DNA of 33,441 bases. Origin: a bacterium (GTDB lineage Bacteria > SZUA-182 > JBHHXV01). How positions within the stretch are numbered: the first letter of the stretch is position 1; each line of letters starts with the position of its first letter. Positions 3,296 through 33,441 of this stretch are shown piece after piece. Location: the NCBI GenBank assembly GCA_046757225.1, contig JBHHXV010000002.1, forward strand, positions 1 through 33,441, given 5' to 3'. The notes under the pieces were generated by a model. That model searched no databases, was not told the origin of the DNA, and was given only the letters and a program-made list of their open reading frames with translations. Made by a program: the position numbers and the translations under genes.

Positions 3296-3448
3296 ATGAA
3301 ACACCTGTCCTACCTTTTTTGGGCCTACGCAGTGGTCTGGATCACCTTGTTCGGCTATATGGCAAGCCTTCAGAAACGGCGGAAAGATCTGTCCCGGGAA
3401 CTGGAGGATTTGAAGGACTCAATTCCTGTGAGTTCGACAGACCCCTAG
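3296..3448 (+). CDS. ccmD: CcmD family small membrane protein (alternative short CcmD type); not in the supplied ORF track because it is under 60 aa
   Basis: ATG at 3296 is preceded by AAGGAAA. The product is MKHLSYLFWAYAVVWITLFGYMASLQKRRKDLSRELEDLKDSIPVSSTDP, one TM helix followed by a basic stretch and an acidic tail, as in short CcmD proteins. It sits where ccmD is expected after ccmABC. Confidence 0.75.
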   Translation: MKHLSYLFWAYAVVWITLFGYMASLQKRRKDLSRELEDLKDSIPVSSTDP

Positions 3449-8903: not shown

Positions 8904-8921
8904 CTTAACCCGGTCTATTCA
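8904..8921 (-). repeat. 18-nt motif TGAATAGACCGGGTTAAG (read on the minus strand), 5' of usp; exact inverted partner at 13212-13229
   Basis: Plus-strand CTTAACCCGGTCTATTCA is the exact reverse complement of 13212-13229. It lies 22 nt upstream of the usp ATG, in sense orientation to that gene. Confidence 0.8.
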
Positions 8922-9024
8922 CAAATTTAATGTATAGGAATTTCAAAGTTGCCCATCATATTGCTCAATTACCAGCCTGCGCTTGTGAACGAAGTGAGCC
9001 AGCAGGCGCCAATTGCAAGAGTGC

Positions 9025-11261: not shown

Positions 11262-11663
11262 TTAGCGTTTTGAAAACTGGAAGCGGGCTCTTGCGCCTTT
11301 TTGTCCGGGTTTTTTCCGTTCTTTAATTCGGGAATCCCTGGTGAGCAGTCCGGCTTTTTTCAGGACAGCCCGGTTTTCCCGGTCGATTTCCACCAACGCC
11401 TTGGATATTCCATGGCGGATCGCCCCGGCTTGGCCGGTCTTGCCGCCTCCTGCAACGGTCGCAATGACATCGAAAGCGATCTTTTCCTCTTCGTTAACCA
11501 GTTGCAGTGGTTGATTAACCAGAGCCAGGTTGCTTTCTCTGTTGAAATAATCCGCTCCCTTTTGTTTATTAACGGTGACCTTTCCCGTTCCCGCACTCAG
11601 CCAGATCCTGGCAGAGGAACATTTTCTCCGGCCGGTGGCATAAGTTTTTTCCGAGTTACCCAT
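11262..11663 (-). CDS. rpsI: 30S ribosomal protein S9
   Basis: [19 protein letters not shown]...[27 protein letters not shown] is the hallmark S9 C-terminus. Confidence 0.95.
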
Positions 11664-11679
11664 ATTTGATCCTTAAATT

Positions 11680-11779
11680 GTTTTTACCGTGAAATATCGA
11701 AGTGGAATGGCCCCTTTCTCGGGGGATAACCACCTTTTTTCATCATGCGGGGGTGACGTCCGGCCCATCATGAAAGTTT
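11680..11779 (-). repeat. Copy A of a ~105-nt intergenic element (sense to the rplM-rpsI operon), filling the rplM-rpsI spacer
   Basis: The reverse complement reads AAACTTTCATGATGGGCCGGACGTCACCCCCGCATGATGAAAAAAGGTGGTTATCCCCCGAGAAAGGGGCCATTCCACTTCGATATTTCACGGTAAAAAC. With copy D it shares the blocks AAACTTT, TTCATGA, GGGCC, ACGTCACCCCC, ATGATGAAAA, GGTTATC, TTCCAC and TTTCACGGTAAAA in the same order. Confidence 0.8.
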
Positions 11780-12215
11780 ATAAATTCAAACTCAGCGGCT
11801 GAAGATTCTGGGCTTCATGAGGATGATCAGCGCCCTGGTAAACCTTTAACTTTTTTATCATTTTACGGCCGAGGCTGTTTTTAGGCAGCATACCTTTAAT
11901 AGCGTGCCTCAGAATATCTTCCGGCTTTTTTTCCAATAAATCCTGATAGGTTCTGGTTTTCAGTCCACCGAAATAACCGGTATAATTATGATAGACTTTC
12001 TGATCGGCTTTGTTGCCGGTAATCTTAACTTTTTCAGCGTTAATAATCACCACGTGGTCACCCGTGTCGATACTCGGGGAATAAAAGGGACGATGCTTGC
12101 CTTTTAATAATTGAGCGACATTGGTGGCCAACCTGCCGAGAACGACATCTGAGGCGTCCACCAGGAACCAGTTTTTTCCGCTGGTATCTTTTTGGGTCGT
12201 TGAATATGTCTTCAT
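11778..12215 (-). CDS. rplM: 50S ribosomal protein L13
   Basis: WFLVDA...VLGRLA..VA..L.GKH.P.Y.P..D.GD.V..INA.K...TG.K......Y is the canonical L13 pattern, and the gene is upstream of rpsI as in most bacteria. Confidence 0.95.
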   Translation of the reverse strand: MKTYSTTQKDTSGKNWFLVDASDVVLGRLATNVAQLLKGKHRPFYSPSIDTGDHVVIINAEKVKITGNKADQKVYHNYTGYFGGLKTRTYQDLLEKKPEDILRHAIKGMLPKNSLGRKMIKKLKVYQGADHPHEAQNLQPLSLNL

Positions 12216-12255: not shown

Positions 12256-12284
12256 ATGATATACATTTGGCTTTTGTTTGTCAA
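12256..12284 (-). promoter_or_regulatory. candidate sigma70-type promoter for rplM-rpsI
   Basis: On the minus strand: TTGACA (12284-12279), a 17-nt spacer, then TATCAT (12261-12256), about 40 nt upstream of the rplM ATG. Confidence 0.45.
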
Positions 12285-12310: not shown

Positions 12311-12372
12311 TCCTGTTGAATAGTCCAGGAGAGAAGGGGAACACCGCTCCGTTATGTTCACGGTAAAAGAAT
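12311..12372 (+). repeat. Copy B (5'-shortened/degenerate) of the intergenic element, upstream of the ankyrin gene
   Basis: CTGTTGAATAGTCCAGGAGAGAAGGGGAACACCGCTCCGTTATGTTCACGGTAAAAGAAT aligns with the 3' half of copies C and D (GTTCACGGTAAAAGA is identical to D). A possible further remnant follows at 12380-12420 (TGACGGGGG..., AAGGTGGTT; compare TGACGGGCC in C and AAGGTGGTTAT in A). Confidence 0.6.
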
Positions 12373-12445
12373 AAAAAAATGACGGGGGATTGCCGGTTTT
12401 TCGGAAGGTGGTTGAATTAGTTGGTGTTTGTTTACAAATCTCGCT

Positions 12446-12474
12446 TTGACTTATTCCCATTAATAGGCTAGACT
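12446..12474 (+). promoter_or_regulatory. candidate sigma70-type promoter for the ankyrin gene, possibly giving a leaderless or near-leaderless mRNA
   Basis: TTGACT (12446-12451), a 17-nt spacer, then TAGACT (12469-12474). The ATG at 12482 is only 7 nt after the -10 box, and no Shine-Dalgarno sequence is visible. Confidence 0.35.
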
Positions 12475-12481
12475 TTTAAGC

Positions 12482-13039
12482 ATGAAACAGTTTCTCTGTA
12501 CAGTATTTTCTCTGTTGTTTTTTATGGCGATTAATCTAATCGCCGTCCGTCCGGTTCTGGCGACAGATCAGAATAAGCTGTTATTGAGAGCTGTCGCTTT
12601 CGGTAATGCGGCGAAAACCAAGGCCGCCCTCCGGAAAGGCGCTGATCCGGATACAAGAGATGGGAATGGCAACACGGTTTTGATGAAAATGACGAAGAAA
12701 GGGTATACCCGTATTGCGAAGATCTTAATTTTCTACGATGCTGACGTAAACGCTCAGAACAAGCTGGGCGAGACCGCCTTAATTCTGGCGGCGGAAGGAC
12801 ATATCAAGATAATGCGCGTTTTGCTCAGTAAAGGCGCTGACCCAAATGCCAGAAGCAAGGATGGAACGACCCCCTTGATGCGGGCGGCGGACAAGGGGAG
12901 TCTCTACATCGTGAAACTTTTGCTGGAACATGGGGCGGATGTAAATACCCGGGATCATAAAGGTCGGACTCCGTTGTGGTTCGCCCAGAAGAAGCAAAAG
13001 AAGGAAATAATTAAATTGCTTGAGCAGTATCAGAAATAA
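12482..13039 (+). CDS. secreted ankyrin-repeat protein
   Basis: N-terminal signal-like MKQFLCTVFSLLFFMAINLIAVRPVLA, followed by about four ANK repeats (G.T.LM.A...G....V..LL..GADVN/PN). Confidence 0.85.
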   Translation: MKQFLCTVFSLLFFMAINLIAVRPVLATDQNKLLLRAVAFGNAAKTKAALRKGADPDTRDGNGNTVLMKMTKKGYTRIAKILIFYDADVNAQNKLGETALILAAEGHIKIMRVLLSKGADPNARSKDGTTPLMRAADKGSLYIVKLLLEHGADVNTRDHKGRTPLWFAQKKQKKEIIKLLEQYQK

Positions 13040-13052
13040 GCGACTGATTTAA

Positions 13053-13067
13053 CCCGAATAATTCGGG
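13053..13067 (+). terminator. weak hairpin downstream of the ankyrin gene (possible terminator)
   Basis: CCCGAATAATTCGGG starts 14 nt after the stop codon and can form a 5-7 bp stem. No U-tract follows, so the support is weak. Confidence 0.25.
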
Positions 13068-13211
13068 AATCATAGCAAAGCAGATGATATGTTGTTGAAA
13101 ATAGTTACTTTTTATCAGTTTCCCTTCAACTTTTTTGGGCTAACAAATTTTGTATGGACGTTGGCCTAATTCATTTTCTGGTAAGGGGTCTGGCAAATGT
13201 CAGCCAAGTTA

Positions 13212-13229
13212 TGAATAGACCGGGTTAAG
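13212..13229 (+). repeat. 18-nt motif TGAATAGACCGGGTTAAG, 5' of the HIT gene; exact inverted partner at 8904-8921
   Basis: It ends 8 nt before the ATG at 13238, and its 3' end overlaps the AAGGAG Shine-Dalgarno sequence. It is in sense orientation to the downstream gene, like its partner. Confidence 0.8.
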
Positions 13230-13237
13230 GAGAAAGA

Positions 13238-13669
13238 ATGAAGGAGTGCATCTTTTGTAATATCGTAAAAGGACGGATTCCCGGAGAGATTGTCTACGAA
13301 GATATCGATACAATTGCCATTCTGGATATCTATCCGGCCAACAAGGGGCATGTTCTGGTGATTCCCCGCCATCACTCCGCCACCATTTTAGACACTTCCA
13401 ATGAGAGCCTGGCCGGTATGATGTCTGCCGCCAAACTGATTTCCCGGGTGTTAATGGATGAGCTGGAAGCGGAAGGAATAAATATTCTGCAGAATAACTT
13501 CAAGAGTGCCGGTCAAGTCATTGAGCATGCTCATCTTCACTTGATTCCCCGGTTTCAGGACGATAAGGTAAAATTCTCCCTGGGCCCGGAAAAGTATGAG
13601 GAGGGAGAGATCAAACAATACGCCAAAGATTTCCGGTTGGCTTTGCAGCAATGTCTGGCGGGAAAGTAA
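13238..13669 (+). CDS. HIT (histidine triad) family nucleotide hydrolase/transferase
   Basis: CIFC.I..G.IP...VYED, GHVLVIP and the histidine triad HAHLHLIPR. Confidence 0.9.
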   Translation: MKECIFCNIVKGRIPGEIVYEDIDTIAILDIYPANKGHVLVIPRHHSATILDTSNESLAGMMSAAKLISRVLMDELEAEGINILQNNFKSAGQVIEHAHLHLIPRFQDDKVKFSLGPEKYEEGEIKQYAKDFRLALQQCLAGK

Positions 13670-17159: not shown

Positions 17160-17438
17160 ATGTTTTTAGCCAGGGTTACCGGCAATATCGTTTCCACGGT
17201 CAAGCATTCCGCCTATAAAGGCAAAAAGATCATGGTTGTCCATAAAGTGAACTTGAAGGGAAAAATGGAAAAAGAGGCCTACCTGGCCATTGACGAGGCC
17301 CAGGCCGGTGATGGTGACCTGGTTCTGCTTTTATTGGAAGGCAGTTCCGCCCGCACGGTTCTGCATAATGATACCGCTCCGGTCAGGGGAATCATTATGG
17401 GGATAGTGGATCAGGTCGATATCCCTTCCTCCTGCTGA
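17160..17438 (+). CDS. EutN/CcmL family (BMC-P, microcompartment vertex pentamer fold) protein
   Basis: MFLARVTGNIVSTVKHSAYKGKKIMVV...AIDEAQAGDGDLVLLL.GSSAR......PV...I.GIVDQV parallels EutN (MKLAVVTGQIVCTVRH...AIDNIGAGTGEWVLLVSGSSAR..PVD..VIGIVDEV). I prefer the ATG at 17160, 4 nt after the upstream stop. Confidence 0.75.
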   Translation: MFLARVTGNIVSTVKHSAYKGKKIMVVHKVNLKGKMEKEAYLAIDEAQAGDGDLVLLLLEGSSARTVLHNDTAPVRGIIMGIVDQVDIPSSC

Positions 17439-19942
17439 GGCGGAACCACCTGAGCGCAGATATAGGAATCGCTCTGAAGAAACTGCCTGGCCACCCTCTG
17501 GATATCCGAAGCGGAAATCTCTTTTATTCTGTTTTCGTATTCCTGATATCTTAGATAACCCAGACCGTACAGTTCGTCCAGGGCGATTTCCAGAGCGATC
17601 GCCTGATTCTTCTGCCGGGAGACCTTCTTATGGCCTGAGAGATTGTTTCTGGCCCGGGAGAGTTCCTCGTCATCCACCGGCTCGTCGATCAGGCGCTGGA
17701 TCTCGTGGAGCATGCTCTTCTTGGCGGCTTCCAGCATTTCCTGAACCGTCCCCACATAGCAGATAAATCCCCCCGGGTCTACGCCGATCCAGTTCATGGC
17801 TCCCACAAAATAAGCCAGGCCCTGTTTTTCCCGGACATTGTCGAACAGCCTTCCCCCCATTCCGGAAAGGATCTCGCAAAGGAGTTCAAATACCGGAGCG
17901 TCCGGGTCTGAGACCGCCATGCCCCGATATCCCAGCATCAAGACCGCCTGCCGCTTGTCCAGGATTTTTTCCGCCATCGTCACCTGGGTAATCGGGGCTT
18001 CCTCTGGGTATTCGAGAAGCGGGTACTTCTTACCGGGCAGGTTGCCGAACTTGTCTTTTATGCTTTCCCGGGCTGCCGGAAAACCGATATCCCCGGAAAG
18101 AACCATTACCATGTTTTCCGGAACCGCCTGTCGCTGATAATAGGTGAGCAGCTCTTCCCGTTTCAGTCCGGTTACCGATTCGATGGTTCCGTTGTCGGGC
18201 AGGCCGTAAGGGTGGTTGGGAAACAGTTTGGCGCGCAGGAGGTTTCTGCTTACGCTGACCGGCTGGTCTTCGTCATCCTTGATATCGGCTATGATTTGCT
18301 CCTTAACGACCGATAAGGCTTTTTCCGGAAAACTGGCATTGCAGACCACATCCGCCAGGATATCCAGGCCGTACTCGAAATCATCCTTCATAACGGACAG
18401 GGAAACCTCCATGGAGTTGCCGCCGCTGGACGCGCCCAGCCTTCCCCCCACCGATTCGATCTGGGAGGCGATCATCTCCGAAGTCCGGCTGGCGGTTCCC
18501 TTGGTAAGCATTTCCGCTACCAGGTTGGAAATGCCGTTGTTGACCCTGTTTTCCGTGCGCAGCCCCCCGGCCATTAACAGCTTGACTCCGATGACCGGAA
18601 CCGCCGGGTTTTCCCGGACAATCAGCCTGAGGCCGTTTTCCAGGACAGTGCGGGTGATCTTTTCGGTTAACTTGTCGGCGCTCTGAGCCTGGCTGTCTTG
18701 CCCGGCAGCGCCTTTCGGTTTTAAAACCAGCCTGGTCATCCGCTCCGGAGAAAAATAAGCGGAAATTATTCTCTGTAAATCATCGGATGTGATCTTGGCC
18801 ACTTTCTTGACGTATTTTTCCGAGAAGAGGCAATCTCCTATGCCGACTTCATTGGCTCCCAGCAGGTGAGCCATCCCCTCCACTTTCTCCTGCTGAAAGA
18901 GATAGTGACTCTGAATCTGTTTTTTGGCTTTCTCCAGCTCTGCTTCCGGCACCTTTTTATTCTTTATCGAGTCGATCTCTTCCCGGATTACCCGGTTGAT
19001 TCGGTCCAGCTTTTCATAATCGAATTCTGCTTCCAGCAGGAATACCCCGGTTTCGGTGGAGGTGTAGGAACAGCAGCTGAAATTGAAAGCCAAACCTTCC
19101 TTTTCCACCAGGCGCTGATACAACCTTGAGCTATGCCCGCCGCCCAGAATCAGCTGCAGGATATCCAGGGCGAAAATATCCGGATGACCGGTGGGAACCG
19201 TGTGAAAACCGGTAACCAGCCGGCTGATCTGGGTTTCGTATTCCAGCTCTCCTGTCCGGGCGGATAGTTGAACCGGTTCCGGGGGAAGAAGGGGGGCTAT
19301 CGGAGTTACCCGGGGGATTTTTTCAAAGAACTCTTTAGCCAGTTGGATCATCTCAGCGCAGGAATCACCGCCGACAGCCACCACGGTCATCCGGTCCGGG
19401 ATGTACATTTTCCGGTAATATTTCAAGAGATCGTCCCGGGTGATCCGGGTGAAGAGCCCTTCATAACCGATGATCGGATGCCTGATCGGATGCCTGATGA
19501 ACGAGGTTCTGGTGAAATTATCGAACAGGTAGCGGTCCGGGTCGTCCATTCCCATGTTGATCTCTTTGAGGATCACCTCCCTTTCCTTTTCCATCTCTTC
19601 GGAGTCAAAGGTGGAAGAGGTAATGGCGTCGGCGAACACATCCATGCCTGTTCTTAAATTTTCTTTGGGCAGAGTAACATGATAGACCGTGTTCTCATAA
19701 GAGGTGAAGGCGTTCAACACGCCGCCCGCCCTTTCGATTTCCCGGGAGATCGCCCCTACCGGCCGTCTGTCCGTTCCCTTGAACAGCATATGCTCCACAA
19801 AATGGGAGATCCCGCTGCCCATGTATTCCCCTTCCAGCACGCTGCCGGCCTTAAACCAGATCTGCAGGGCCGCCACCTCCGCTCCCGGCACCTGCCTGGC
19901 GATTACCACCGCCCCGTTGGCTAATTCCACCCGTTTTGTCAT
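17411..19942 (-). CDS. M16 (pitrilysin/insulinase) family zinc peptidase, two fused M16 modules
   Basis: Inverted zinc motif HFVEHMLFKGT near the N-terminus. At 843 aa it has a second, inactive-type M16 half (LRLIVRENPAVPVIGV...). Confidence 0.85.
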   Translation of the reverse strand: MTKRVELANGAVVIARQVPGAEVAALQIWFKAGSVLEGEYMGSGISHFVEHMLFKGTDRRPVGAISREIERAGGVLNAFTSYENTVYHVTLPKENLRTGMDVFADAITSSTFDSEEMEKEREVILKEINMGMDDPDRYLFDNFTRTSFIRHPIRHPIIGYEGLFTRITRDDLLKYYRKMYIPDRMTVVAVGGDSCAEMIQLAKEFFEKIPRVTPIAPLLPPEPVQLSARTGELEYETQISRLVTGFHTVPTGHPDIFALDILQLILGGGHSSRLYQRLVEKEGLAFNFSCCSYTSTETGVFLLEAEFDYEKLDRINRVIREEIDSIKNKKVPEAELEKAKKQIQSHYLFQQEKVEGMAHLLGANEVGIGDCLFSEKYVKKVAKITSDDLQRIISAYFSPERMTRLVLKPKGAAGQDSQAQSADKLTEKITRTVLENGLRLIVRENPAVPVIGVKLLMAGGLRTENRVNNGISNLVAEMLTKGTASRTSEMIASQIESVGGRLGASSGGNSMEVSLSVMKDDFEYGLDILADVVCNASFPEKALSVVKEQIIADIKDDEDQPVSVSRNLLRAKLFPNHPYGLPDNGTIESVTGLKREELLTYYQRQAVPENMVMVLSGDIGFPAARESIKDKFGNLPGKKYPLLEYPEEAPITQVTMAEKILDKRQAVLMLGYRGMAVSDPDAPVFELLCEILSGMGGRLFDNVREKQGLAYFVGAMNWIGVDPGGFICYVGTVQEMLEAAKKSMLHEIQRLIDEPVDDEELSRARNNLSGHKKVSRQKNQAIALEIALDELYGLGYLRYQEYENRIKEISASDIQRVARQFLQSDSYICAQVVPPQQEEGIST

Positions 19943-19995: not shown

Positions 19996-20101
19996 CAAAA
20001 CTTTTCCTGACGGGCCGCTCTTCTTCCCTCTGTGATGAAAAAGTGTGATTATTACCCATGAAGAGGGAAACCCCACTCCGGTATTTTCACGATAAAAGAA
20101 G
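19996..20101 (+). repeat. Copy C (full length) of the intergenic element, upstream of the MBL-fold gene
   Basis: CAAAACTTTTCCTGACGGGCCGCTCTTCTTCCCTCTGTGATGAAAAAGTGTGATTATTACCCATGAAGAGGGAAACCCCACTCCGGTATTTTCACGATAAAAGAAG is collinear with copy D (CAAAACTTTTC, GGGCC, TGATGAAAA, TTTTCACG.TAAAAGA). Confidence 0.8.
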
Positions 20102-20171
20102 AATCGCTTAATTTGACAATCCAGGAGCGCAATCCTATAATTAAGTTCAAGAGACTGGAAATAAATTCACT

Positions 20172-20957
20172 TTGTTTAAAATAAGTAAATATATAACGGT
20201 CTGTCTGGCGGTATTATTTCTGGGGCCGTCCTTTGCTGACGCCGCCGATACCATCCGGATTATCTATGACAGCGAAACCAGAACCCCCGGTTTAAGAACC
20301 GGCTGGGGTTTCTCGGCGGTGGTTACGGTGGGGAAACGCAAGCTGCTGGTCGATACCGGATGGGACCCGGAGATATTCGGTCATAATATGAAGGCTGCCG
20401 GTTATTCTCCCGCCGATTTCGACCTGGTTATTATCTCCCACTGGCATCCGGACCACGCGGGAGGGCTTCGTTATCTTCTGGGGCTTAACCCCGAAATCGA
20501 GACCTATGTGCCCTCGGACATTCCTGGCGATTACGCTGGGTTCTATCCTTTTAACACGGTAAAAAAACAGCTGAAAGTCGCTCCCAACGTATATATATTC
20601 CAGACCAATCCCGACAATCCCCGTTTTCGGATAAAAGAGGAGCTGAGTCTGGTGGTGAAAACCTCTCAGGGGCCGGTGATCGTTTCCGGTTGTTTTCACA
20701 CCGGCTGGCCCCGGTTGCTCAAGGCGGTGGGGGAGGTTTTTCCCGAAAAGCCGTACCTGATGGTGGGGGGCGGCCGGTTCATCGATCTCGATCAGGCGCA
20801 GTTAACGAAACTGGCCGGGGAAATTAAGGGGCTTGGTTTGCAGAAGGTGGGGCTTTCCCATTGCGCGGCCGGCCCCCTCCCGGAATCGGTGTTTGAAAAA
20901 TTTTACCCGGGGCGGTCTGTCTATGCCCGTCTGGGGGCGGTAATCAATCTTCCTTAA
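20172..20957 (+). CDS. secreted MBL-fold metallo-hydrolase (COG1237-like)
   Basis: HWHPDHAGG (HxHxDH) motif, an N-terminal signal peptide ending FADA, and TTG as the only in-frame start. Confidence 0.7.
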   Translation: MFKISKYITVCLAVLFLGPSFADAADTIRIIYDSETRTPGLRTGWGFSAVVTVGKRKLLVDTGWDPEIFGHNMKAAGYSPADFDLVIISHWHPDHAGGLRYLLGLNPEIETYVPSDIPGDYAGFYPFNTVKKQLKVAPNVYIFQTNPDNPRFRIKEELSLVVKTSQGPVIVSGCFHTGWPRLLKAVGEVFPEKPYLMVGGGRFIDLDQAQLTKLAGEIKGLGLQKVGLSHCAAGPLPESVFEKFYPGRSVYARLGAVINLP

Positions 20958-20965
20958 TTTTTAGT

Positions 20966-21949
20966 ATGAAAAAACTTTCCCCTTTAGAGATTCCCGGATT
21001 GGTTGCTTCCGAACTCGGGGAGGTGGAAAAAATCCTGGCCGAGCGGCTGAAGGTGGAAAACCCTTTAATCAGCGAGATCGGAAGTTACGTATGTAACAGC
21101 GGCGGAAAACGGCTTCGTCCGGTCATGCTGCTGCTGGCCGCCAGGATCTGCGGCGATTCGGACGGCCAGGCCCCTTTGTTCGCCAGTGTTATGGAATTGA
21201 TCCATGTGGCCACGCTGCTCCATGATGACGTGCTGGACCGGGCTGAGGTAAGAAGGGGAAAACCATCCGCCAATACCCGCTGGAGTAATAACGTTTCGGT
21301 GTTAACCGGCGATTATCTTTATTCCTGGTCCCTTTTCGCTCTTGAAGAGGCTCAGAAGCCGGCCATCCTGAAACTGGTGATTCAGGCGGTCATGACCATG
21401 ACCGACGGAGAAATTCTGGAATCGGTTAAAAAGGGGGATCTGGGGATCACCGAAGGGGAGTACCTGGAGATTATCGAGAAAAAGACCGCGCATCTTTTTT
21501 CCTGCAGTTGCCGCGCCGGGGCCATCATCGAAGGGGACAACCACGGGTGGAGCAACGCTATGGCCGAGTATGGAATCAATACCGGCATGGCGTTCCAGAT
21601 TATGGATGATATCCTGGATTACACGGCGGATCAGGCCAGATTGGGCAAGGTGATCGGAGGGGATGTCCGGGAAAAAAACTTTACCCTGCCGATCATTCAT
21701 GCCATGGCCTGCGCCAACCGGCCGGAAAAAGAAAGAATAAGGGAAATTTTCGCTGGTGAAGAGCTGGCTGAGGGAGATTTTGCTTATTGTCTCGATTTGA
21801 TTCATAAATATAAATCTTTTGACTACGCTTTAGCCAAAGCCGGGCAATATGTGGAGAAAGCCCGGAATTGTCTTACTGTTTTCGAGGACTCAATCTATCG
21901 GGATGCCTTTTTCGCCATCTCGGAATACAGCATAAACCGGGATCATTAA
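20966..21949 (+). CDS. trans-polyprenyl diphosphate synthase (IspB/HepT-like, long chain)
   Basis: First DDxxD motif LLHDDVLD with the following RRG, second motif FQIMDDILD, and GKR.RP near the N-terminus. Confidence 0.9.
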   Translation: MKKLSPLEIPGLVASELGEVEKILAERLKVENPLISEIGSYVCNSGGKRLRPVMLLLAARICGDSDGQAPLFASVMELIHVATLLHDDVLDRAEVRRGKPSANTRWSNNVSVLTGDYLYSWSLFALEEAQKPAILKLVIQAVMTMTDGEILESVKKGDLGITEGEYLEIIEKKTAHLFSCSCRAGAIIEGDNHGWSNAMAEYGINTGMAFQIMDDILDYTADQARLGKVIGGDVREKNFTLPIIHAMACANRPEKERIREIFAGEELAEGDFAYCLDLIHKYKSFDYALAKAGQYVEKARNCLTVFEDSIYRDAFFAISEYSINRDH

Positions 21950-21953: not shown

Positions 21954-22060
21954 CAAAACTTTTCATGAAGGGCCTCACGTCACCCCCTAATGATGAAAAC
22001 AGGTTATCACACCCACGAAAAACGGGTTTCCACATTTTGTGTTTTCACGGTAAAAGATAA
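21954..22060 (+). repeat. Copy D (full length) of the intergenic element, filling the spacer between the polyprenyl synthase and radical SAM genes
   Basis: CAAAACTTTTCATGAAGGGCCTCACGTCACCCCCTAATGATGAAAACAGGTTATCACACCCACGAAAAACGGGTTTCCACATTTTGTGTTTTCACGGTAAAAGATAA. It begins 5 nt after the upstream stop and ends 3 nt before the GTG start at 22064. Confidence 0.8.
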
Positions 22061-22063: not shown

Positions 22064-22927
22064 GTGACAACCAGCCTCTATTTTGAAAAACTGGAAAACC
22101 AGCGGGTAAGGTGCACACTTTGCCCCCATGAGTGTGTTATCGCCCAGGGAAAAGCGGGTATATGCCGGGGCAGGGTGAACCGGCAGGGCAGGCTTTACGC
22201 GGAAAATTACGGCCAGGTGTCTTCCCTGGCCCTCGATCCGGTTGAGAAGAAGCCGCTTTATCATTTTTTTCCCGGCTCGTCCATCTTGTCGATAGGAGTA
22301 AGCGGCTGCAATCTCAGGTGTCAATTCTGCCAGAACTGGCAGCTTTCCCAAACCCCCAATCCCAGCCGCTATATCAGTCCTGAGAAACTGGCCGCTCTGG
22401 CCGGGGAGCATAACTCCATTGGAGTGGCTTTCACTTACTCCGAACCCCTGATCTGGTACGAGTATATCCGGGACTGCGCCCCGCTGCTTCGCCGGGCCGG
22501 CCTCAAAACCGTGCTGGTAAGCAACGGGTTTCTTAATGAGGAACCGTTCAAAAAAATACTCCCCCATATCGACGCCTTTAACATCGACCTCAAGTCCATC
22601 GAAGGCGATTTTTACAAGGGTTGGTGCGGCGGCCGCCTGGAGCCGGTGCTGGAGAACATAAGGTCGGTGGATCGGTCGGACTGCCATCTGGAGCTTACCA
22701 ATTTAATAATTCCCGGCCTTAACGACTCGGATGAACAGATATGCGCTCTGGTAGACTGGGTGGCCGGGCTTAACCCTGACATTCCGGTTCATTTTTCCCG
22801 CTATCATCCTGACTACCAGTGCACCCAACCTCCCACTCCTGCCGCTACTATGCGGAGAGCCCTGTCAATCGCCCAGGGGAAATTGAAATACGTTTATCTG
22901 GGAAATATGAGTGAAGAAGATTCATAA
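22064..22927 (+). CDS. AmmeMemoRadiSam-system-type radical SAM enzyme (PflA-like activase fold)
   Basis: YFEKLEN..VRCTLCPHECVIAQGKAGICRGR N-terminal Cys cluster, DPVEKKPLYHF and the CNLRCQFCQNW radical SAM CxxxCxxC motif. Confidence 0.85.
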   Translation: MTTSLYFEKLENQRVRCTLCPHECVIAQGKAGICRGRVNRQGRLYAENYGQVSSLALDPVEKKPLYHFFPGSSILSIGVSGCNLRCQFCQNWQLSQTPNPSRYISPEKLAALAGEHNSIGVAFTYSEPLIWYEYIRDCAPLLRRAGLKTVLVSNGFLNEEPFKKILPHIDAFNIDLKSIEGDFYKGWCGGRLEPVLENIRSVDRSDCHLELTNLIIPGLNDSDEQICALVDWVAGLNPDIPVHFSRYHPDYQCTQPPTPAATMRRALSIAQGKLKYVYLGNMSEEDS

Positions 22928-26275: not shown

Positions 26276-27733
26276 CTATCTGGCGGGGGGCTTTATGACC
26301 ACAAACAGCGAGCTCTTATCCCGCTTGCGGAGTACCATAATGGAATCCTCCGGCTTAACCTTTTCCATAGCTTTGTTTAAGCTTTCGACATCGGAAAGAG
26401 GATTACGGTTCAGCTGGATGATTAAGTCACCGGGTATAAGGCCGGCCTCTTCCGCTGGTGAGCCGGTTTCCACGCTGGTTACCAGCATTCCCTCCCCTTC
26501 CTTGACTTCAAACTTCTTGGCCAGTTCAGGGGTGATTTCCTGCAGAGAGAAACCGAAACGGTTGGTCTTTTCCTGAGCCGCTTCCCGGCTTTCTTTCTGC
26601 TGCCCCATGGTGATGGTGATGGTTTTTGGCTTACCGTCCCGGAGAATTTCCACCTTTACCACGGTTTCCGGTTTGGTTCCGGCCGCCAATCTGGATAACT
26701 CGGCCGGGGTATGAACCTTTTGACCGCCGAACTCCAGGATGATATCCCCCGCTTTCATGCCCGCCTTGTCCGCCGGGTCTCCCTTAAAAACCTGGCCGAC
26801 CAGAACCCCGGATTCCTCCGGAACATTGAACTGCTTGGCCAGGGACTCGGTAACCTTCTGGATGGCGATTCCCATCCACCCGCGAACCACTTTGCCGGTG
26901 GTAAGCAGCTGCTCCATGATGTTTCTGGCCATGTTAACCGGAATGGCGAAGCCGATCCCCTGAGCCCCGGAAGTAATGGCCGTATTAATGCCTACTACTT
27001 CCCCTTTGAGATTTATCAGGGGCCCGCCGCTGTTTCCCGGATTAATGGAGGCGTCGGTCTGAATGAAATTTTCATAATTGGCGATGTGAAGCTCGTTACG
27101 GCCAAGAGCGCTGATTACCCCGACGGTGACCGAGTTCTCAAAACCGTAGGGATTACCGATCGCCATCGCCCATTGTCCGATCCGGCATTTATCGGAATCC
27201 CCCAGTTTGGCGGCGGTTAATTTGTACTTTTTAGGTTCTATTTTTATGATCGCCAGATCGGTTTTGGGGTCCTTGCCTATTATCTTGCCGGGGAACTTGG
27301 TGCCGTCCGCCAGTTTTATGGTAATCTTGTCCGCCTTTTCGATCACATGATAATTGGTAAGAACAGTGCCGTTGTCATTGACGATTACTCCCGATCCCAG
27401 GCTGGTCTGGGGAATCCGGCCCTGAGGTATTCTTTTCCGGAAAGGCTCCAGAAAGTTTTTGAAGAAATCCTTCAAATCATCGCCCGGCATACGGTCGAAA
27501 TCATGAGGCGATTTAAAGCCGTGAGGTGATTTACCGGAATCGAATGACGGGTGTTTCACCATATGCTCGGAACTGATATTCACCACCGCATCCCGGTTAT
27601 GCTGAGCCACCTCCACAAAGCCCTCTTCCAGGGCTTTCAAGACCTCCTGCTTATCCAGAGCAAATGAGTTTCCCCAGCAAATCCCCAGCAGAAGCAGGAT
27701 GGAAAAAACAACGAATCGTTTGTTGCGAAGCAT
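26276..27733 (-). CDS. htrA: periplasmic serine endoprotease, HtrA/DegP/DegQ family with two PDZ domains
   Basis: Signal peptide, the catalytic triad context (TNYHV, D.A..KI, GNSGGPL) and two PDZ-like segments (G.LV..V..G.PA..AG...GD.I). Confidence 0.9.
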   Translation of the reverse strand: MLRNKRFVVFSILLLLGICWGNSFALDKQEVLKALEEGFVEVAQHNRDAVVNISSEHMVKHPSFDSGKSPHGFKSPHDFDRMPGDDLKDFFKNFLEPFRKRIPQGRIPQTSLGSGVIVNDNGTVLTNYHVIEKADKITIKLADGTKFPGKIIGKDPKTDLAIIKIEPKKYKLTAAKLGDSDKCRIGQWAMAIGNPYGFENSVTVGVISALGRNELHIANYENFIQTDASINPGNSGGPLINLKGEVVGINTAITSGAQGIGFAIPVNMARNIMEQLLTTGKVVRGWMGIAIQKVTESLAKQFNVPEESGVLVGQVFKGDPADKAGMKAGDIILEFGGQKVHTPAELSRLAAGTKPETVVKVEILRDGKPKTITITMGQQKESREAAQEKTNRFGFSLQEITPELAKKFEVKEGEGMLVTSVETGSPAEEAGLIPGDLIIQLNRNPLSDVESLNKAMEKVKPEDSIMVLRKRDKSSLFVVIKPPAR

Positions 27734-27825: not shown

Positions 27826-30800
27826 TTAGTTGGTGACCGCTGTTGAATAGGAGGGAGAATAGATACGCTTGATTAATTTCCGGTATTCCGCGGGAATCTC
27901 CTGTTGAAAGACACTGCCGTCTTCTTCTTGCTTTCCCAGGGCGATTACCCCCTTTACCTTGTATCTTTTCATATTTTCCGATTCCATCTCTTTGAGTTTG
28001 CTCTTATCCTTCACCTTGATCGGAACATTAAGAAAAAGCTTTTTATCGGCATCTTCCATAAAAGAAAGGTTGGGGGTGTTTTTCTGCTTTATTTTGGTGT
28101 TGGCGAACGTATGCTGGAGAATTTCAGAAGGAGCCCCTCCCTGGTTCATGTAAAAGTCAGCGTTTTTTATCTCGGGTTGCTGGTGCGATGTCTGCCGGCG
28201 AACGCTCCGGTCTTTGGAAAGCGGTAATTTCCTGGTGGAAAGAGTTTTATTCTCTGTCCCGAGTTTGGCTATCCGCTTACGCTGCTTTTTCAACCTGTTC
28301 ATTATCTGGCTAAAGACATCCCCGCTGGCCAGGTTCTCCTGCATGGGAGAGGTGTTGTTTATCATATCGTTCTGGGGGGTCATGCTGACCTGCTGGGCTA
28401 CCTTGGCGTTATAGAAGGCCTGTCGCTTAGTGGCTGAAGGGGAAGGCTTCGCGTTGTTCGTCTTGGTCTCATCATCACCCTCCTGATTACTTCCGTTGTC
28501 ATCGTCGGAATTATTGCGCGAATTCTGCCGGCTCTTCTGCAGTTGCTTTACCATCTGGTCGATTTGATTGATCGCTCCCTGTTTTAAAATGTCTTCCGGA
28601 TTCATGGAGTCGCTGAACCCCTGTTGATTGGTTCTCTTTTGAAAGAACCGGGAGAAGAGAGGCATGGTTTCCATAGAATTCTTCAGCTGGTCGAAAAAGC
28701 TTCCCTTACTGTTGCTTATGGGAAGCTTCCCGGTTTGCATTTTGTCTTGAATCATATCCAGATCCTTGGATGAAAGCTTGTTCATTTGCCGGGAGATCTG
28801 TTTAATCATTCTATCGTCCAGCTGCTGCGACAGCTTATCGCTCATTTCCATGTATTTCCGCCAGTTACTCTTCATCTGTTTTATCCGCATATCACCGAGC
28901 GTTTGCTTTGAAGCGGAATTCTTCAGGTTCTTGGTAAGCTTGTTCAGCTTATGCGAAACCTTTGATAAATCAGAGGTAATCTCTCTGAGCTTTTCCCGCC
29001 GTTTATTTTGGTCTTTCTCCTTAAGCAGCTTTTTTAATTCCGACCGCTTTTTTCCGATAGTTCTTCTTTCGGGGCTGGAACCGCCCAGTTTGTTTTCAAT
29101 CCCTTTCATCTGGGTATCGATTTTATCGAAATTCTGGGCTAACTCGCCTATGGCGTTCGGTTGAGAAAGAATATATGAGATATTATCCAATTCATTGGCG
29201 GAAGTCACCATCCTGGATATTTCGTTCATTGATAAGCTGTTAAGCAAATTGGCCGGTTTCACCTTACCCATCCGGATAAATTCCTGGATGCCGCCGTTGA
29301 ACTGGGCAATATGTTTTCTCACATCCGGGGAGATCTTCTCCGGGTCGATCCGTTTAAGAAAATCCTTGTTTTGTCTCGCTTGACTGATAAGCTTGTTAGC
29401 GGTCTGATCTTTGGGGTTTTTCTTCAGGCGTTCGGCCAGATTCTGTACCAGAGAATCATTTACATCTTTCATCTTGTTCATCATGTTAACAACCTGCCCG
29501 GAATTCTGGGCTTTTTTTATGCCGATGGAGAGCCGGGAAAGCTTGACCAGCTGTTTGTTTACATTGGTCTCGGATTTGCCCGGCTTATTAATCGGGGCCA
29601 TATTCTGTATGTTTTTATCCAGTTTAAGCATCTGTTTCCTGAAATCGCCGGAAAGCTTGCTGGGATCAATTTTGCTTAACAGTTTTTTGTTTTTTCTGAC
29701 CCTGGACAACAGTCTTTTTCCCAGGTCATCACCGGGATTATTCCTCAAATGCCGGCTGAATTTCTTAATCATGGAATCATTAAGCTTGTTCATCTTGTCG
29801 ACGGTCGCTTTCAATTGATTGGAATTTTTAACACTCATTAAATCAACGTTCAACTGGGAGAGTTTTCTTATCTTATCATCGGACATACTGCCGCCGCTTG
29901 GAACGGTCTTACTCGCCAGGCTGTGGATGCCGGTCTTCAACCGCAGCGCCTGCTTCTTGAAATCATGGGAAACCGCGTTCGGATTGATTTTATTCATTAA
30001 GTTTTTATTGGCTTTGGCCTGTTGCAACAATTTACCGGTTTGCCGGTCATCGGGGTTCTTTTTCAAACGCCGGTTGAGTTTATCCAGCATCGCCTGATTC
30101 AAACTCTTCATTCTATTCATGATTACTTTTCGGCGGCGGGAGTTCTTGTCTTTTAACAGCCCGTTGCTCAACCGGGTAAGTTCGCTTATTTGAGCGAGCG
30201 GGAGGCTGCCTGCGGTCTGGGGATTGAGCCTCCGGTCCAGGTTGTTGATGCCGGTATCCAGTTTCAAGACCTGCTTTCTGAAATCTCCGGAAAGCTTACC
30301 CGGATTAATCTTATCCATCAATTTCCGGCTGTTTTTGGCCTGTTCCAGCAAGGCCTTGCTTTTAAGGTCGTTGGGGGTTCGGCTTAAACGGCGCGCCAGG
30401 GTGTCGATAACCGACTTGTTGAGGGATTTCATTCTGGCCATCATCGCCTTTCTGCGGGCGGCGTTCTTTTCGTTCAGCAAATCCTGGTTGAGCTTGGAAA
30501 GCTCCCGCAGCTGGGTGGGAGTGGCGTCGAAAGCTTTCAGGGAATCATCCCGGGCCAGGTTCTGCAGGCCGTTGTTCAATTGTAATATCCGCTTTCTGAA
30601 ATCCTGAGAAACCTTATTGGGGTCGATACTTTTCATCAGGTTCTGATTGGTTTTCACCTGCTCCAGCAACTTCTGGCTTTGCCCGTCCCCGGGATTATTC
30701 CGCAAGCGCTCAGACAGCTTGTTGATCATGGACCGGTTGAGGGTCTTAATCCTCTTTATGACCGATTTCCGGCGGCCGGCGTTCTTTTCGCTCAGTAAAT

Positions 30801-33441
30801 TCCTGTTCAGTTCCGCCAGCTCGCTTATTTGGCCCTGGGTCATATCAGCCCCGAATCGGTCATTAAAGCCTCGGACCGTATCATTTATACCGGTATCCAA
30901 TTGCAATGTTTGCTTTCTGAAGGTGTGGGAAACCTTACTGGGATTGATTTTGTCCATTAGCTTCTGGTTTGTCTTAGCCTGAGCCAGCAGGCCCCTGATT
31001 TTAGGGTCACCAGGGTTCCGGTCCAAACTCCGGCTCAGGTTATCCATCATCGCCCGGTTCAGGGTCTTCATTCTCTTTACCATCGCCTGTCTCAGCCCGG
31101 CGTTCTTTTCGTTCGCAAGCTGCCCGCTTAATTGGGAAAGTTCGCTCAACTGACTGCCAACGGACTGGGACCCGGCCGGGGATTCGTTATTATCCTTAAA
31201 CCGGCTTCCCAGGCGGTTGCTTAACTGCTGAAGCGAGTCGGCCAGGACTTTTTGCCTGTCCGGGTCTTTCTCCTTCATCAATCTTTGGGAAAGATCCTTT
31301 ATCCGTTTCAGGTCCCCGGCAGCCGGGTTCGATTGGCTGGAGTCCGTTCTGGTAAGTGTTTTCTGGCTTAATTGTTGCAGCTTGGACGCTTGAGAGGGAT
31401 CTTTACCGGACATCTTCCGTGATAACTGATCCAGTTTTAAACCGATTGAGTCCATATCCTTGATTGAACCGGCCTGGACCTGCTCGGCCAGTTTGGCCAG
31501 TTCCAATGTCTGTCGCACAGCCTTTCTCTCTTCCGATTTTCTCGCCAGATCCTGCTGAATCTTTTTCTGTGACTGGGTAAGTTGCTGGGCGAGCTGCTTG
31601 ATCCGCCGCGGATCAGTGGTTTTCTGCAGCTTCTGCAGCAACCCTTGAGCCGTTTTTTGTTTTTTTAATAAGGCCGGGTCGATTGAGGGTGAAGCTACGT
31701 TACTGTTGTTTAAGCTCTGCTGAAGTTGATTCATCCGGTTCAATCCCGCAGCGGTGGCCGCCAGCTGGTCCCGCATTTTCAAAACATTTTGCTTGTCCAT
31801 CTTTGAGGAGCGTATTTTCCGGTTTATCCTGGTCAGTTTCCGGTACTTTTCCTTCCTCTGACGGCTGACGGTTTCATCCAGTTTGTCCAGATCCACCTCG
31901 TCTTTTTCCCTGTTTGCCGCCTGTTTCCGCAGATTGAAGGCGGTTCGCTTAACCTCAGTGGCTATCTCACTCAGTTCCCTGGCCAGTTGAGCGTTCTCCG
32001 GGTTCTGAGCGGAGATCTTTTTAAGGTTGCTTGTCAGAGCCTGAGCGGTCTGACCGATCTGGTTCAAACTGTTCGCGTCTTGAGGCCGCTTGAGCATATC
32101 GCTGAGTTCTTTCAACCGGGAGGCGCTCTTTTTCAGCTGGGATATTTGTCGGTCGGGGATTTGCCGGTTGTTTCGGGAGGGAGGCTGATTGCCGTGAATA
32201 CCGGTTGCCGCCCCGGGCATCCCCGTCTGGCCCAAAAAGCTGTTGGGATCTATTCCGGCCGGGATTTGATCAAACGACATTCCCTGAGACATAAAGTCGC
32301 TCGGATTTATTCCAGTGGGAATTTGATTTATCTGGCCATCGATTTGCGGTATGGAACTCGGGGTAAGAGGAACCGCCCCCCCCTTAGCCAGCATGTACTT
32401 GCTGCCGAACTGCATGTTGCGCTCCCTGAGGCTGACGTCCGCCTCGCCGGCCAGCTTGTCCAAGTCCATATTGGCCAGATCATCGGAAGCCATCATCATT
32501 TTGGACATTACTTTTTTCAGTTTGTCCGGGCTATCTTGATTTTTCTTTACCTGCTGATTGAGGTCCTTCAACTGGTTTCCCAATGACTCGATCTTTTCCG
32601 CCTCTTTCTTGCTCAACCTTTTACCGCCGGTTCTCGGTTGTAAACCGAATTGATTGAGCGCCAGTTTGTTCAATCTGGCGCTCGTGTCAATCAACTGCTG
32701 ATTGAGGCCTTTTATTTTAAAAGGATTTTCTTCCTTTTTGATCGCCGCTTCCAGGGCCTGGATGCTCCGGTTCAACTCCTTCAGGTTATCCAGGCCGCCG
32801 CTGGGAACGCCTTTTCTCATTCCCGCCCACTCCGTAAGCAGTTGATCGCTCTCCCGGGCCAGCCTGGAAGCCATTCCCTTGACGTTTTGAGGCGCCCGGT
32901 TCTTTTTCAGGTGCTCGCTTATCTTCTGAATCCGGTCCAATCTGTCCTTAAAATCAGCGGGAAGCGCCTGTCCCTGAGCTTGAGAGGGATCAAGCCCGTC
33001 ACTCAACCGGCTGATACTGTCCGAGTACGCTCTGATTTGCTTGGTTAAATTCCGGTTTCCGACGCTGTCGATCTTTTCCAGTTGATTGGCCATCTCTTCC
33101 AGCCGTTTGTTGTCGCCCTTCAACGCTTCTCTGGTAATTACGCTTTGTCCCGGCGGCGGGGAAGCATTGTGATTCATGATCCCTCCGGCGATACCGGCCA
33201 CGTTCTGGGCTATCTGAGACATTTCCCGGGAAAATTTCTTCCGGGTTTCCGGAGAAACGTTTTTAGACATCTGCTGGGCAAGCGAGAGCCGGGTTTGGGT
33301 ATCTACATTATCAGCCATGCTGTCCGAAAGATCGGCTTTATGTTCGGGAGAAATGTTTTTGGCCATTATATTGTAAGACTGTTCCCGGGTCTGTTGGTCA
33401 ACCTGACCTTGCATTTTCCCGGAAACCTTTGTTCTCATCTT
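27826..33441 (-). CDS. giant low-complexity repeat protein of unknown function (at least 1870 aa, N-terminus beyond the window edge)
   Basis: One uninterrupted minus-strand frame runs from the window edge (33439-33441 continues the frame as AAG) to TAA at 27828-27826. Internal amino-acid repeats are conserved while the DNA has diverged, which argues for a real coding sequence. Confidence 0.8.
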   Translation of the reverse strand, partial: KMRTKVSGKMQGQVDQQTREQSYNIMAKNISPEHKADLSDSMADNVDTQTRLSLAQQMSKNVSPETRKKFSREMSQIAQNVAGIAGGIMNHNASPPPGQSVITREALKGDNKRLEEMANQLEKIDSVGNRNLTKQIRAYSDSISRLSDGLDPSQAQGQALPADFKDRLDRIQKISEHLKKNRAPQNVKGMASRLARESDQLLTEWAGMRKGVPSGGLDNLKELNRSIQALEAAIKKEENPFKIKGLNQQLIDTSARLNKLALNQFGLQPRTGGKRLSKKEAEKIESLGNQLKDLNQQVKKNQDSPDKLKKVMSKMMMASDDLANMDLDKLAGEADVSLRERNMQFGSKYMLAKGGAVPLTPSSIPQIDGQINQIPTGINPSDFMSQGMSFDQIPAGIDPNSFLGQTGMPGAATGIHGNQPPSRNNRQIPDRQISQLKKSASRLKELSDMLKRPQDANSLNQIGQTAQALTSNLKKISAQNPENAQLARELSEIATEVKRTAFNLRKQAANREKDEVDLDKLDETVSRQRKEKYRKLTRINRKIRSSKMDKQNVLKMRDQLAATAAGLNRMNQLQQSLNNSNVASPSIDPALLKKQKTAQGLLQKLQKTTDPRRIKQLAQQLTQSQKKIQQDLARKSEERKAVRQTLELAKLAEQVQAGSIKDMDSIGLKLDQLSRKMSGKDPSQASKLQQLSQKTLTRTDSSQSNPAAGDLKRIKDLSQRLMKEKDPDRQKVLADSLQQLSNRLGSRFKDNNESPAGSQSVGSQLSELSQLSGQLANEKNAGLRQAMVKRMKTLNRAMMDNLSRSLDRNPGDPKIRGLLAQAKTNQKLMDKINPSKVSHTFRKQTLQLDTGINDTVRGFNDRFGADMTQGQISELAELNRNLLSEKNAGRRKSVIKRIKTLNRSMINKLSERLRNNPGDGQSQKLLEQVKTNQNLMKSIDPNKVSQDFRKRILQLNNGLQNLARDDSLKAFDATPTQLRELSKLNQDLLNEKNAARRKAMMARMKSLNKSVIDTLARRLSRTPNDLKSKALLEQAKNSRKLMDKINPGKLSGDFRKQVLKLDTGINNLDRRLNPQTAGSLPLAQISELTRLSNGLLKDKNSRRRKVIMNRMKSLNQAMLDKLNRRLKKNPDDRQTGKLLQQAKANKNLMNKINPNAVSHDFKKQALRLKTGIHSLASKTVPSGGSMSDDKIRKLSQLNVDLMSVKNSNQLKATVDKMNKLNDSMIKKFSRHLRNNPGDDLGKRLLSRVRKNKKLLSKIDPSKLSGDFRKQMLKLDKNIQNMAPINKPGKSETNVNKQLVKLSRLSIGIKKAQNSGQVVNMMNKMKDVNDSLVQNLAERLKKNPKDQTANKLISQARQNKDFLKRIDPEKISPDVRKHIAQFNGGIQEFIRMGKVKPANLLNSLSMNEISRMVTSANELDNISYILSQPNAIGELAQNFDKIDTQMKGIENKLGGSSPERRTIGKKRSELKKLLKEKDQNKRREKLREITSDLSKVSHKLNKLTKNLKNSASKQTLGDMRIKQMKSNWRKYMEMSDKLSQQLDDRMIKQISRQMNKLSSKDLDMIQDKMQTGKLPISNSKGSFFDQLKNSMETMPLFSRFFQKRTNQQGFSDSMNPEDILKQGAINQIDQMVKQLQKSRQNSRNNSDDDNGSNQEGDDETKTNNAKPSPSATKRQAFYNAKVAQQVSMTPQNDMINNTSPMQENLASGDVFSQIMNRLKKQRKRIAKLGTENKTLSTRKLPLSKDRSVRRQTSHQQPEIKNADFYMNQGGAPSEILQHTFANTKIKQKNTPNLSFMEDADKKLFLNVPIKVKDKSKLKEMESENMKRYKVKGVIALGKQEEDGSVFQQEIPAEYRKLIKRIYSPSYSTAVTN
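29230..31149 (-). repeat. six tandem in-frame repeats of 106-107 codons inside the giant ORF
   Basis: Units start at 31149, 30828, 30510, 30189, 29871 and 29550 (aa 764, 871, 977, 1084, 1190, 1297). Approximate unit consensus: [IL].EL..L...LL.EKNA.RRK....RMK.LN..M...L..RL..NP.D.....LL.QAK.N..LM.KI.P.K.S.DFRKQ.L.L.TGI..L. Confidence 0.85.

Follow-up and report, generated by a model that had tools for sequence, protein, structure and literature searches.

Does the roughly 100-nt sequence between a polyprenyl synthase gene and a radical SAM gene of an uncultured hydrothermal-vent bacterium act as a structured RNA, or is it a copy of a mobile piece of DNA? The question arises from a contig of 33,441 nt (JBHHXV010000002.1 of assembly GCA_046757225.1; GTDB lineage Bacteria; SZUA-182; JBHHXV01), hereafter the window. 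In it, an original prediction placed a conserved intergenic element at 21954-22060 (copy D), counted three further copies (A, B and C) and offered two explanations, one being a structured RNA that acts in cis, the other a mobile repeat of miniature size with an orientation bias. We conclude, with a probability of about 0.6, that the element belongs to a family of dispersed DNA repeats that are small, non-coding, non-autonomous and mobile or once-mobile. It would fall into the broad class formed by repetitive extragenic palindromes (REPs), bacterial interspersed mosaic elements (BIMEs) and MITEs (miniature transposable elements with inverted repeats). The feature is real and reproducible; its kind is ordinary and the family is new, lying within no named family. 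Copy number, unrelated flanks and the insertion of copy A speak for the mobile-repeat half of the prediction, though not for a classical MITE, while the structured-RNA half is neither shown nor excluded by the data.

The copies in the window were delimited as follows.

21955..22056, + strand: copy D, full unit, ends set by the limits of metagenome contig matches; covariance model score 106.9 bits
11680..11780, - strand: copy A, full unit in the rplM-rpsI spacer, found by profile, covariance model and alignment
19997..20101, + strand: copy C, full but diverged unit, found by profile, covariance model and alignment
12316..12373, + strand: copy B, 3' remnant alone (nhmmer match 12332-12370, E 0.015; covariance model E 0.31)

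The profile was built on six full copies, D, A and C together with three from other genomes and metagenomes (L027, L044 and L076, described below). It matched D and A with nhmmer E values of 1e-23 each, C with 4e-21 and B with 0.015, and covariance model R1 gave 107 bits for D, 97 for A and 88 for C. As had been claimed, D, C and the reverse complement of A are collinear over about 101 nt each, with pairwise identities of 0.69-0.74. In a MAFFT alignment of A-D the mean column identity was 66% and every sequence block of the original prediction was recovered, in one order. A repeat finder independently paired A with D over 44 nt (86%) and C with D over 46 nt (76%). Copy B does match the 3' part of the unit, over some 40-58 nt, but weakly. 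With filters off, the covariance model found no further copy within the window. Scored as degenerate copies, its other intergenic regions were unremarkable against D (best 22-25 of 300 shuffles), and profile searches of them were empty.

The window is present in three hydrothermal-vent metagenome runs (X1-X3), whose contigs were aligned to copy D at a likeness of at least 80%. Summed contig depth over 21955-22056 was 100-267 in the three runs versus 6-7.5 in the flanks, so that the element stands at about 15-40x flank depth. The excess is made up of 23-30 contig pieces per run that continue on both sides into unrelated sequence; most have a window-like depth of their own (3-16), and the contigs of the window itself stop within the element. 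Matches to D begin at 21954-21956 and end at 22055-22056, and because other metagenome contigs start and stop matching there, the unit is taken to extend from 21955/6 to 22055/6. The predicted element at 21954-22060 is therefore kept but its limits are not. A pile-up on this exact unit with differing flanks identifies a dispersed repeat. We estimate roughly 15-40 copies, or more narrowly about 20-40, in subfamilies and with truncated remnants; the count is rough, since it is derived from the assembler's word depth added up over metagenome contigs, and other organisms may own some of the copies. In the D-like copies, all listed variants that exceed 2% of depth fall within 21987-22023, and at 22006 and 22022 nearly all other contigs covering these sites carry G; near-identity across tens of sites points to recent spread. 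The 5' domain of copy A is common to other contigs (about 19x summed depth), copy C has relatives at 80% or more for its 3' 45 nt only (about 8x), and copy B, with no relative and no extra depth in the metagenome, is a unique truncated remnant. Loose contig ends gave an A-rich consensus, but only 2-5 unrelated flanks went into it and they agreed at 0.5-0.7, so it was set aside as an artefact of consensus building.

For copy A, the spacer could be compared with those of other genomes. The L13 protein of the window has no homolog above 64% identity, and no contig other than the window's own was found to carry it. Around four of the closest L13 homologs (six loci: L088, L089, L097-L100) the rplM-rpsI spacer measures 18-22 nt, and neither profile nor covariance model detected a copy in the contigs around the closest homologs. 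Because the spacers of these relatives are only 18-22 nt long, copy A is interpreted as an insertion. The same short spacers rule out a conserved ribosomal-protein leader or autoregulatory RNA for rplM-rpsI. At L091, from another lineage, the rplM-rpsI spacer is 153 nt long, unrelated in sequence (1436-1588) and likewise unmatched by the covariance model; the corresponding spacer of L090 lies at 10430-10583, where the S9 gene call is extended through it to 173 residues. This 153-nt spacer may represent an independent insertion at the same place.

The genes next to the copies were assigned with Pfam.

11262-11663, - strand: rpsI
11778-12215, - strand: rplM
12482-13039, + strand: ankyrin-repeat gene
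17411-19942, - strand: M16 peptidase gene
20172-20957, + strand: metallo-beta-lactamase (MBL)-fold gene
20966-21949, + strand: polyprenyl synthase gene
22064-22927, + strand: radical SAM gene

Copy D is situated between the stop codon of the polyprenyl synthase gene (21947-21949) and the GTG start of the radical SAM gene (22064), and the 5' AAA of copy A overlaps the rplM stop codon TAA (11778-11780). Both occupy the intercistronic spacers assigned to them in the original prediction and are sense-oriented within transcription units, starting 0 (A) and 6 nt (D) past the upstream stop and ending 16 nt (A) and 7 nt (D) ahead of the downstream start codon. Copies B and C occupy the two divergent intergenic regions of the window, C between the M16 peptidase gene (-) and the MBL-fold gene (+) and B between the divergent rplM and ankyrin promoters. 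The statement that all copies point in the direction of the downstream gene is thus literally correct for the four, but it is informative for A and D only, because either orientation in a divergent region is sense to one neighbor. The downstream genes have no function in common. Three predicted promoters bear on copies B and C.

20113..20141, + strand: sigma-70-type promoter TTGACA-17-TATAAT (12/12 consensus matches), between copy C and the MBL-fold gene
12256..12284, - strand: promoter-like site for rplM, TTGACA-17-TATCAT; copy B is upstream of the site
12446..12474, + strand: promoter-like site for the ankyrin gene, TTGACT-17-TAGACT; 73 nt downstream of the end of copy B

Copy C ends 12 nt ahead of the consensus -35 hexamer, and a distance of 70-110 nt that includes a predicted promoter separates B and C from the start codon; since both lie upstream of these promoters, the downstream mRNA probably does not contain them. 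Inside the copies themselves no sigma-70-type or terminator-like site was found on either strand, and a role as outward promoter or terminator, in either orientation, was rejected for want of a consensus site. The promoter-like site of the ankyrin gene ends 7 nt before the ATG at 12482 (region 12446-12484); the ankyrin mRNA may be leaderless, or the true start or promoter may lie elsewhere.

The unit of about 101 bp has unlike ends, 5' AAAACTTTTCATGA and 3' TTTTCACGGTAAAAG. It contains two variable hairpin modules and, three times in alternating orientation, the motif TTTTCA/TGAAAA (S1 forward, S2 inverted, S3 forward). In copy D these parts are located as follows.

21960..21966, + strand: S1, TTTTCAT, part of the conserved 5' terminus AAAACTTTTCATGA
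21990..21999, + strand: S2 block ATGATGAAAA (motif 21993-21999), invariant in the six full copies
21994..22047, + strand: 3'-domain hairpin with the base helix TGAAAACA/TGTTTTCA, which is S2:S3, enclosing the central hairpin
22011-22014 (ACCC) and 22024-22027 (GGGT), + strand: central hairpin, inside S2:S3
22042-22048, + strand: S3, the third TTTTCA motif
22041..22056, + strand: 3' terminal block GTTTTCACGGTAAAAG, of which at least 13 bases do not vary among the window copies, L027, L044 and L076

S2 is complementary to S1 as well as to S3 and can pair with either; the 3' terminal block GTTTTCACGGTAAAAG is the best-conserved part of the family. Two hairpins had been said to persist although their sequence changes. 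Covariation was assessed on the six sequences, which come from three lineages and from which the structure itself was derived. In the S2:S3 helix (UGAAAAnn/nnUUUUCA) 92% of cells were paired, and at two pairs both partners had changed (C-G/A-U in D, U-A/C-G in L027 and L044, U-A in L076). For S2:S3 together with the inner hairpins the covariation was 0.213 versus a shuffle mean of 0.073, a value reached by 0/500 shuffles, with slid controls at 0.05-0.10. This hairpin, joining UGAUGAAAA to UUUUCACGG, is kept and covaries. The 5' stem S1:S2, with 81% of cells paired, never covaries, and its outer pairs are broken in 3/6 sequences. The central hairpin hence withstood the covariation check, but only with the outside relatives included, whereas the 5' stem TTTTCAT/ATGAAAA did not; of the two helices, S2:S3 has the stronger support. 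The window copies fold no better than dinucleotide shuffles (z +0.83, +0.27 and -0.92), and G-U and A-C cells, 4 vs 3, do not separate RNA from DNA. These results show that a palindrome is kept and do not distinguish the RNA from the DNA level. The additional pairing of GTTATC with GATAAC had to be abandoned as a family feature, as part of GATAAC falls beyond the unit and, of the other contigs that span 22006, 9-10 have G at this position (GTTGTC). An integron attC reading of GTTATC...GATAAC was rejected as well (wrong order, pairing in D only, partly outside the unit). Readings of UGAUGA as K-turn, C/D-box or hammerhead were rejected on registers that misfit across the copies, the sole related Rfam signal being a chance snoRNA at E 5.3.

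Relatives were sought by pattern scans of species-representative genomes, JGI metagenomes and viral contigs, and by blastn in a plasmid collection. The genome scan returned 58 chance matches and two real ones, L027 and L044, both in a single Desulfobaccales metagenome-assembled genome (MAG); the JGI scan returned 26 chance matches and one real one, the lake-water contig L076. Viral contigs gave three matches only, apparently by chance, and the plasmid collection gave no match to the element. A protein search with a gene neighboring the L027 copy found no close relative, and a literature search for the 3' block as a string gave chance matches only, in insect and fungal papers. The three loci retain TTCATG, the first hairpin, CCC..ATGATGAAAA, GGTTGT or a variant of it, the second hairpin and ATTTTCACGGTAAAA, with the block spacing of the window copies and identities of 0.55-0.63; L044 and L076 are also in divergent intergenic regions. 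The second hairpin is AUCC/GGAU in L076, and in L027 and L044 an 11-12-pair GTAG-tagged palindrome, GTAGGGGCGACG...CGCCCTTAC. In sediment runs, L044 1164-1435 proved to be a mosaic of modules at 30-150x flank depth, each separately bounded (at 1282-85, 1319-34, 1368 and 1427-28). The commonest module of L027 and L044, about 55 nt long, has 9-bp inverted termini, AACTTTTCA...TGAAAAGTT, of which AACTTTTCA is a motif also present at the 5' end of the window element. The mosaic regions of the MAG, at L044 1164-1435 and L027 3900-4439, are assembled from a CTTGAAAAGTTTCGAGTTT unit, a G+C-rich palindrome, the unit of about 55 nt with AACTTTTCA termini, and GTAG-tagged palindromes.

In copies A and D, an open reading frame (ORF) spans the entire spacer between the two neighboring genes.

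21965..22060, + strand: bridging frame in D, ATG, 31 codons, as long in 11/2000 dinucleotide shuffles
11673..11771, - strand: bridging frame in A, ATG, 32 codons, as long in 19/2000 shuffles

The D frame starts 15 nt past the upstream stop and stops 3 nt before the GTG, with which it is in frame. The A frame starts 6 nt past the rplM stop and stops 9 nt before the rpsI ATG, overlapping the Shine-Dalgarno sequence. The two peptides are alike over the first ~15 residues only, after which homologous DNA is read in different frames, and the frame is closed early in C (CTG and an early stop), in L027 and L044 (after 14 codons) and in L076 (after 8). No homolog of an encoded peptide was found, the four matches being chance ones (an ankyrin-repeat protein and another repeat protein). 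A 909-residue chimera of all stop-free six-frame peptides of the copies, used in a search for gene calls running through the element, had no match. We read the frames as openness and not as protein. As a post hoc observation on two related copies, they are compatible with selection for translational coupling across the insert.

A dispersed, non-autonomous DNA repeat accounts for these observations as follows. The element would have spread recently to tens of intergenic sites in the vent bacterium, presumably landing at A-rich sites. Its presence inside operons might be tolerated because it carries no terminator-like site and, in copies A and D, because the bridging frames could enable ribosomes to maintain translational coupling over the inserted stretch. 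The S2:S3 hairpin may have been kept as a recognition structure for a mobilizing enzyme on single-stranded DNA, or as an RNA stem of a co-transcribed copy.

Besides the roughness of the copy number, several points weigh against this explanation. The metagenome contigs contained neither an empty site nor a joint skipping the element, and L076 is single-copy in the lake runs. No terminal inverted repeat beyond chance was detected: with its 5' 30 nt aligned to the reverse complement of its 3' 30 nt, copy D scores 11, which 196/1000 shuffles equal, the terminal alignments of the other copies are worse, and only CTTTT/AAAAG (5 bp) is common to the ends. The check for target-site duplications suggested with the original prediction turned up no variable duplication at six loci or in the metagenome copies. 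What it did reveal were AAA(A) runs flanking a CTTTT...CACGGT core on both sides in 5/6 loci and in all metagenome copies, which may represent either a duplicated target of fixed sequence or no more than the element's own ends. The window holds no transposase, its gene content being housekeeping genes and a HicA toxin gene only, and no autonomous parent was found there or in the plasmid collection; mobility is for this reason deduced from copy number and distribution only. Lastly, the 13-15-nt 3' block and S2 are invariant in very distant lineages, beyond the need of a decaying selfish repeat.

Among the alternatives, a cis-acting structured RNA that serves processing, stability or translation of the downstream or upstream gene, and was copied widely because it is useful, survives best, and we consider it unlikely. 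It would fit the sense orientation of A and D inside operons, the S2:S3 helix and inner hairpin kept with compensatory changes in three lineages, and the invariance of S2 and the 3' blocks in distant lineages, and pairing of S2 with S1 or S3 would permit a conformational switch. Behind one other metagenome copy (contig end behind 20097) comes GAGAGGA-N10-ATG, a ribosome-binding site with a start codon. Against such an RNA stand the probable location of B and C outside the downstream mRNA, upstream of predicted promoters in divergent regions, folding that is no better than that of shuffles (z +0.83 to -0.92), a 5' stem free of covariation, equal numbers of G-U and A-C cells (4 vs 3), downstream genes lacking a common function, and the near-identity of tens of copies, which points to recent spread. 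A look for RNA runs containing the window, L044 or L076 brought up none.

A more specific proposal, which we also consider unlikely, takes up the conserved blocks: the family could be a so far undescribed, unlike-ended mobile module whose 3' block (UUUUCACGGUAAAA) and S2 stay invariant in very distant bacteria because they have a function, whether in recognition by an unknown recombinase or in an RNA switch in which S2 pairs with S1 or S3. The bridge frame would relay terminating ribosomes from the upstream stop to the downstream start and so preserve coupling in operons.

The alternating motif also raised the thought that the element acts as DNA, as a protein-binding module with three RTGAAAA sites for a nucleoid protein or regulator, which the repeat would distribute upstream of promoters. 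All full copies do contain the motif three times with the same spacing; B, C, L044 and L076 are in divergent, promoter-bearing regions, and C ends 12 nt before a consensus -35. Yet A and D sit in intercistronic spacers devoid of promoter consensus, no regulator and no known operator fitting the motif were identified, its sequence is short and rich in A/T, and the downstream genes are unrelated; we regard such a module as improbable.

Miniature elements derived from IS200/IS605 transposons (palindrome-associated transposable elements) have unlike ends, no inverted termini and subterminal hairpins. Descent from such a single-strand (HUH) transposon, whose insertions would lie 3' of a short motif of constant sequence, in this case an A-run, offers a possible mechanism. 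The unlike ends without terminal inverted repeats, one hairpin near each end and the possible fixed left-flank motif AAA(A), seen in 5/6 loci and all metagenome copies, all agree with it, as does the central GTAG-tagged palindrome of L027 and L044, a kind that PMC3733652 links to HUH (RAYT) transposases. The hairpins of the window copies are weak, however, with only 3-4 pairs; neither the window nor any locus showed a tnpA, tnpB or RAYT gene, and Rfam gave no IS605-type or omega-RNA match. In addition, A is opposite to C and D, yet the cumulative GC skew climbs over most of the window and does not clearly turn between these copies; orientation in this small sample is thus not bound to the replication strand. 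Such an origin is likewise improbable. Finally, that the element encodes a protein of 31-32 residues from the conserved ATG of CATGA is nearly excluded: the open frames of A and D are rarer in shuffles and their 15 N-terminal residues are similar, but the 3' halves of A and D are in different frames, C, L027, L044 and L076 close early, the ATG has no preceding ribosome-binding site, and there are no homologs.

The new repeat was also compared with known families. The original prediction did not recognize a known RNA family, and rightly so: a search of Rfam release 15 gave 0 matches at gathering thresholds in the window, and only sub-threshold, chance-level ones around the copies, L027, L044 and L076. 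REP and BIME sequences are described in PMC3733652 as short intergenic repeats that are non-coding and number from tens to hundreds of copies; their hairpin modules are joined in alternating orientation, and often they are co-transcribed, with the upstream stop no more than 20 nt away. The present family resembles them in these respects, and the L027 and L044 versions carry a GTAG-tagged palindrome in mosaic clusters. The alternating mosaic is a property of L027 and L044; in the window it is just the S1/S2/S3 motif pattern inside one unit. The window copies differ in that they are without the 20-40-bp G+C-rich palindrome or GTAG/CGTC tag and have stems of 3-4 pairs and read GTTATC or GTTGTC. 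REPs are also mostly found between unidirectional and convergent genes, unlike the 4 or 5 of 7 known loci here that are divergent. Furthermore, the unit is about 101 nt long with unlike ends, and no RAYT gene was seen in the window or loci.

With the MITEs Correia, ERIC, RUP and Chunjie the element shares small size (~100-230 bp), non-coding character, multiple copies and A+T-rich intergenic sites (PMC3184786, PMC10969869). Chunjie can sit in operons without breaking them and truncated copies occur, and ERIC and Correia can be co-transcribed and affect mRNA (PMC3184786, PMC10969869). Such elements have inverted repeats at their termini, of 21 bp in Chunjie and 26 bp in Correia, and are flanked by direct repeats (PMC3184786, PMC10969869); here no such termini were found, and no flanking direct repeats other than the AAA(A) runs, nor does the window unit as a whole adopt one long stable stem fold, and no similarity to the four was seen in Rfam or the plasmid collection. 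Judged by the general traits of MITEs, the unit of 101-102 bp is within their size (below ~400 bp), lacks a transposase gene and has many copies, and it departs from them in its termini, which are not inverted. [quoted passage not shown] Like these, A, D and one other metagenome copy lie directly 5' of a start codon in sense orientation. Unlike them, the element contains no promoter consensus, the rpsI ribosome-binding site is downstream of copy A, and B and C are set back from the start codon by 70-110 nt with an intervening promoter.

Other features of the window were noted in passing. A second repeat, (A)TGAATAGACCGGGTTAAG, is present at 13185-13230 and, as reverse complement, at 8904-8927, directly upstream of and sense to the starts of a HIT gene (13238) and a universal-stress-protein gene (8882). 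It is unrelated to copy D, and no match to it was found in Rfam, in viral contigs, in any fetched locus or in copy D. Its depth in run X1 is ~1450 at 13208 versus ~6.5 in the flanks, and the 567-nt bin 13042-13608 averages a depth of 756, far above the element studied here. Depth also rises to 13-27, versus ~7, at 26883-27431, 568-1701, 2269-2835 and 9073-9639, in an HtrA-like protease gene and in ABC-transporter and cytochrome c maturation genes (CcmB, cytochrome c assembly); these rises are probably conserved coding segments of other community members that match at 85% or more, not repeats. The HicA toxin gene (3044-3286, + strand; Pfam E 1.6e-10) adjoins an 85-codon ORF at 3319-3576 that could be its HicB partner. 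An ORF of at least 1870 residues (27826-33438, - strand) reaches to within three bases of the contig end and contains at least four tandem 321-nt (107-residue) repeats at 29930-30989; it has no Pfam match.

For the vent bacterium, the repeat accounts for rplM-rpsI and polyprenyl-synthase/radical-SAM spacers that are ~100 nt longer than those of relatives. It also explains why assembly breaks at many intergenic sites of this organism, which calls for caution in annotation. The bridging frame suggests a testable way in which an insert may be tolerated inside tightly coupled operons. On present evidence the element should not be catalogued as a riboswitch-like RNA; it represents a family of repeats without the inverted termini that define MITEs. 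The shared terminal motif AACTTTTCA and the 3' block link this family to the hugely repeated mosaics of the Desulfobaccales. If the conserved blocks are a recombinase site or an RNA switch, they would provide a handle on an unknown mobilization system in anaerobic sediment and vent bacteria.

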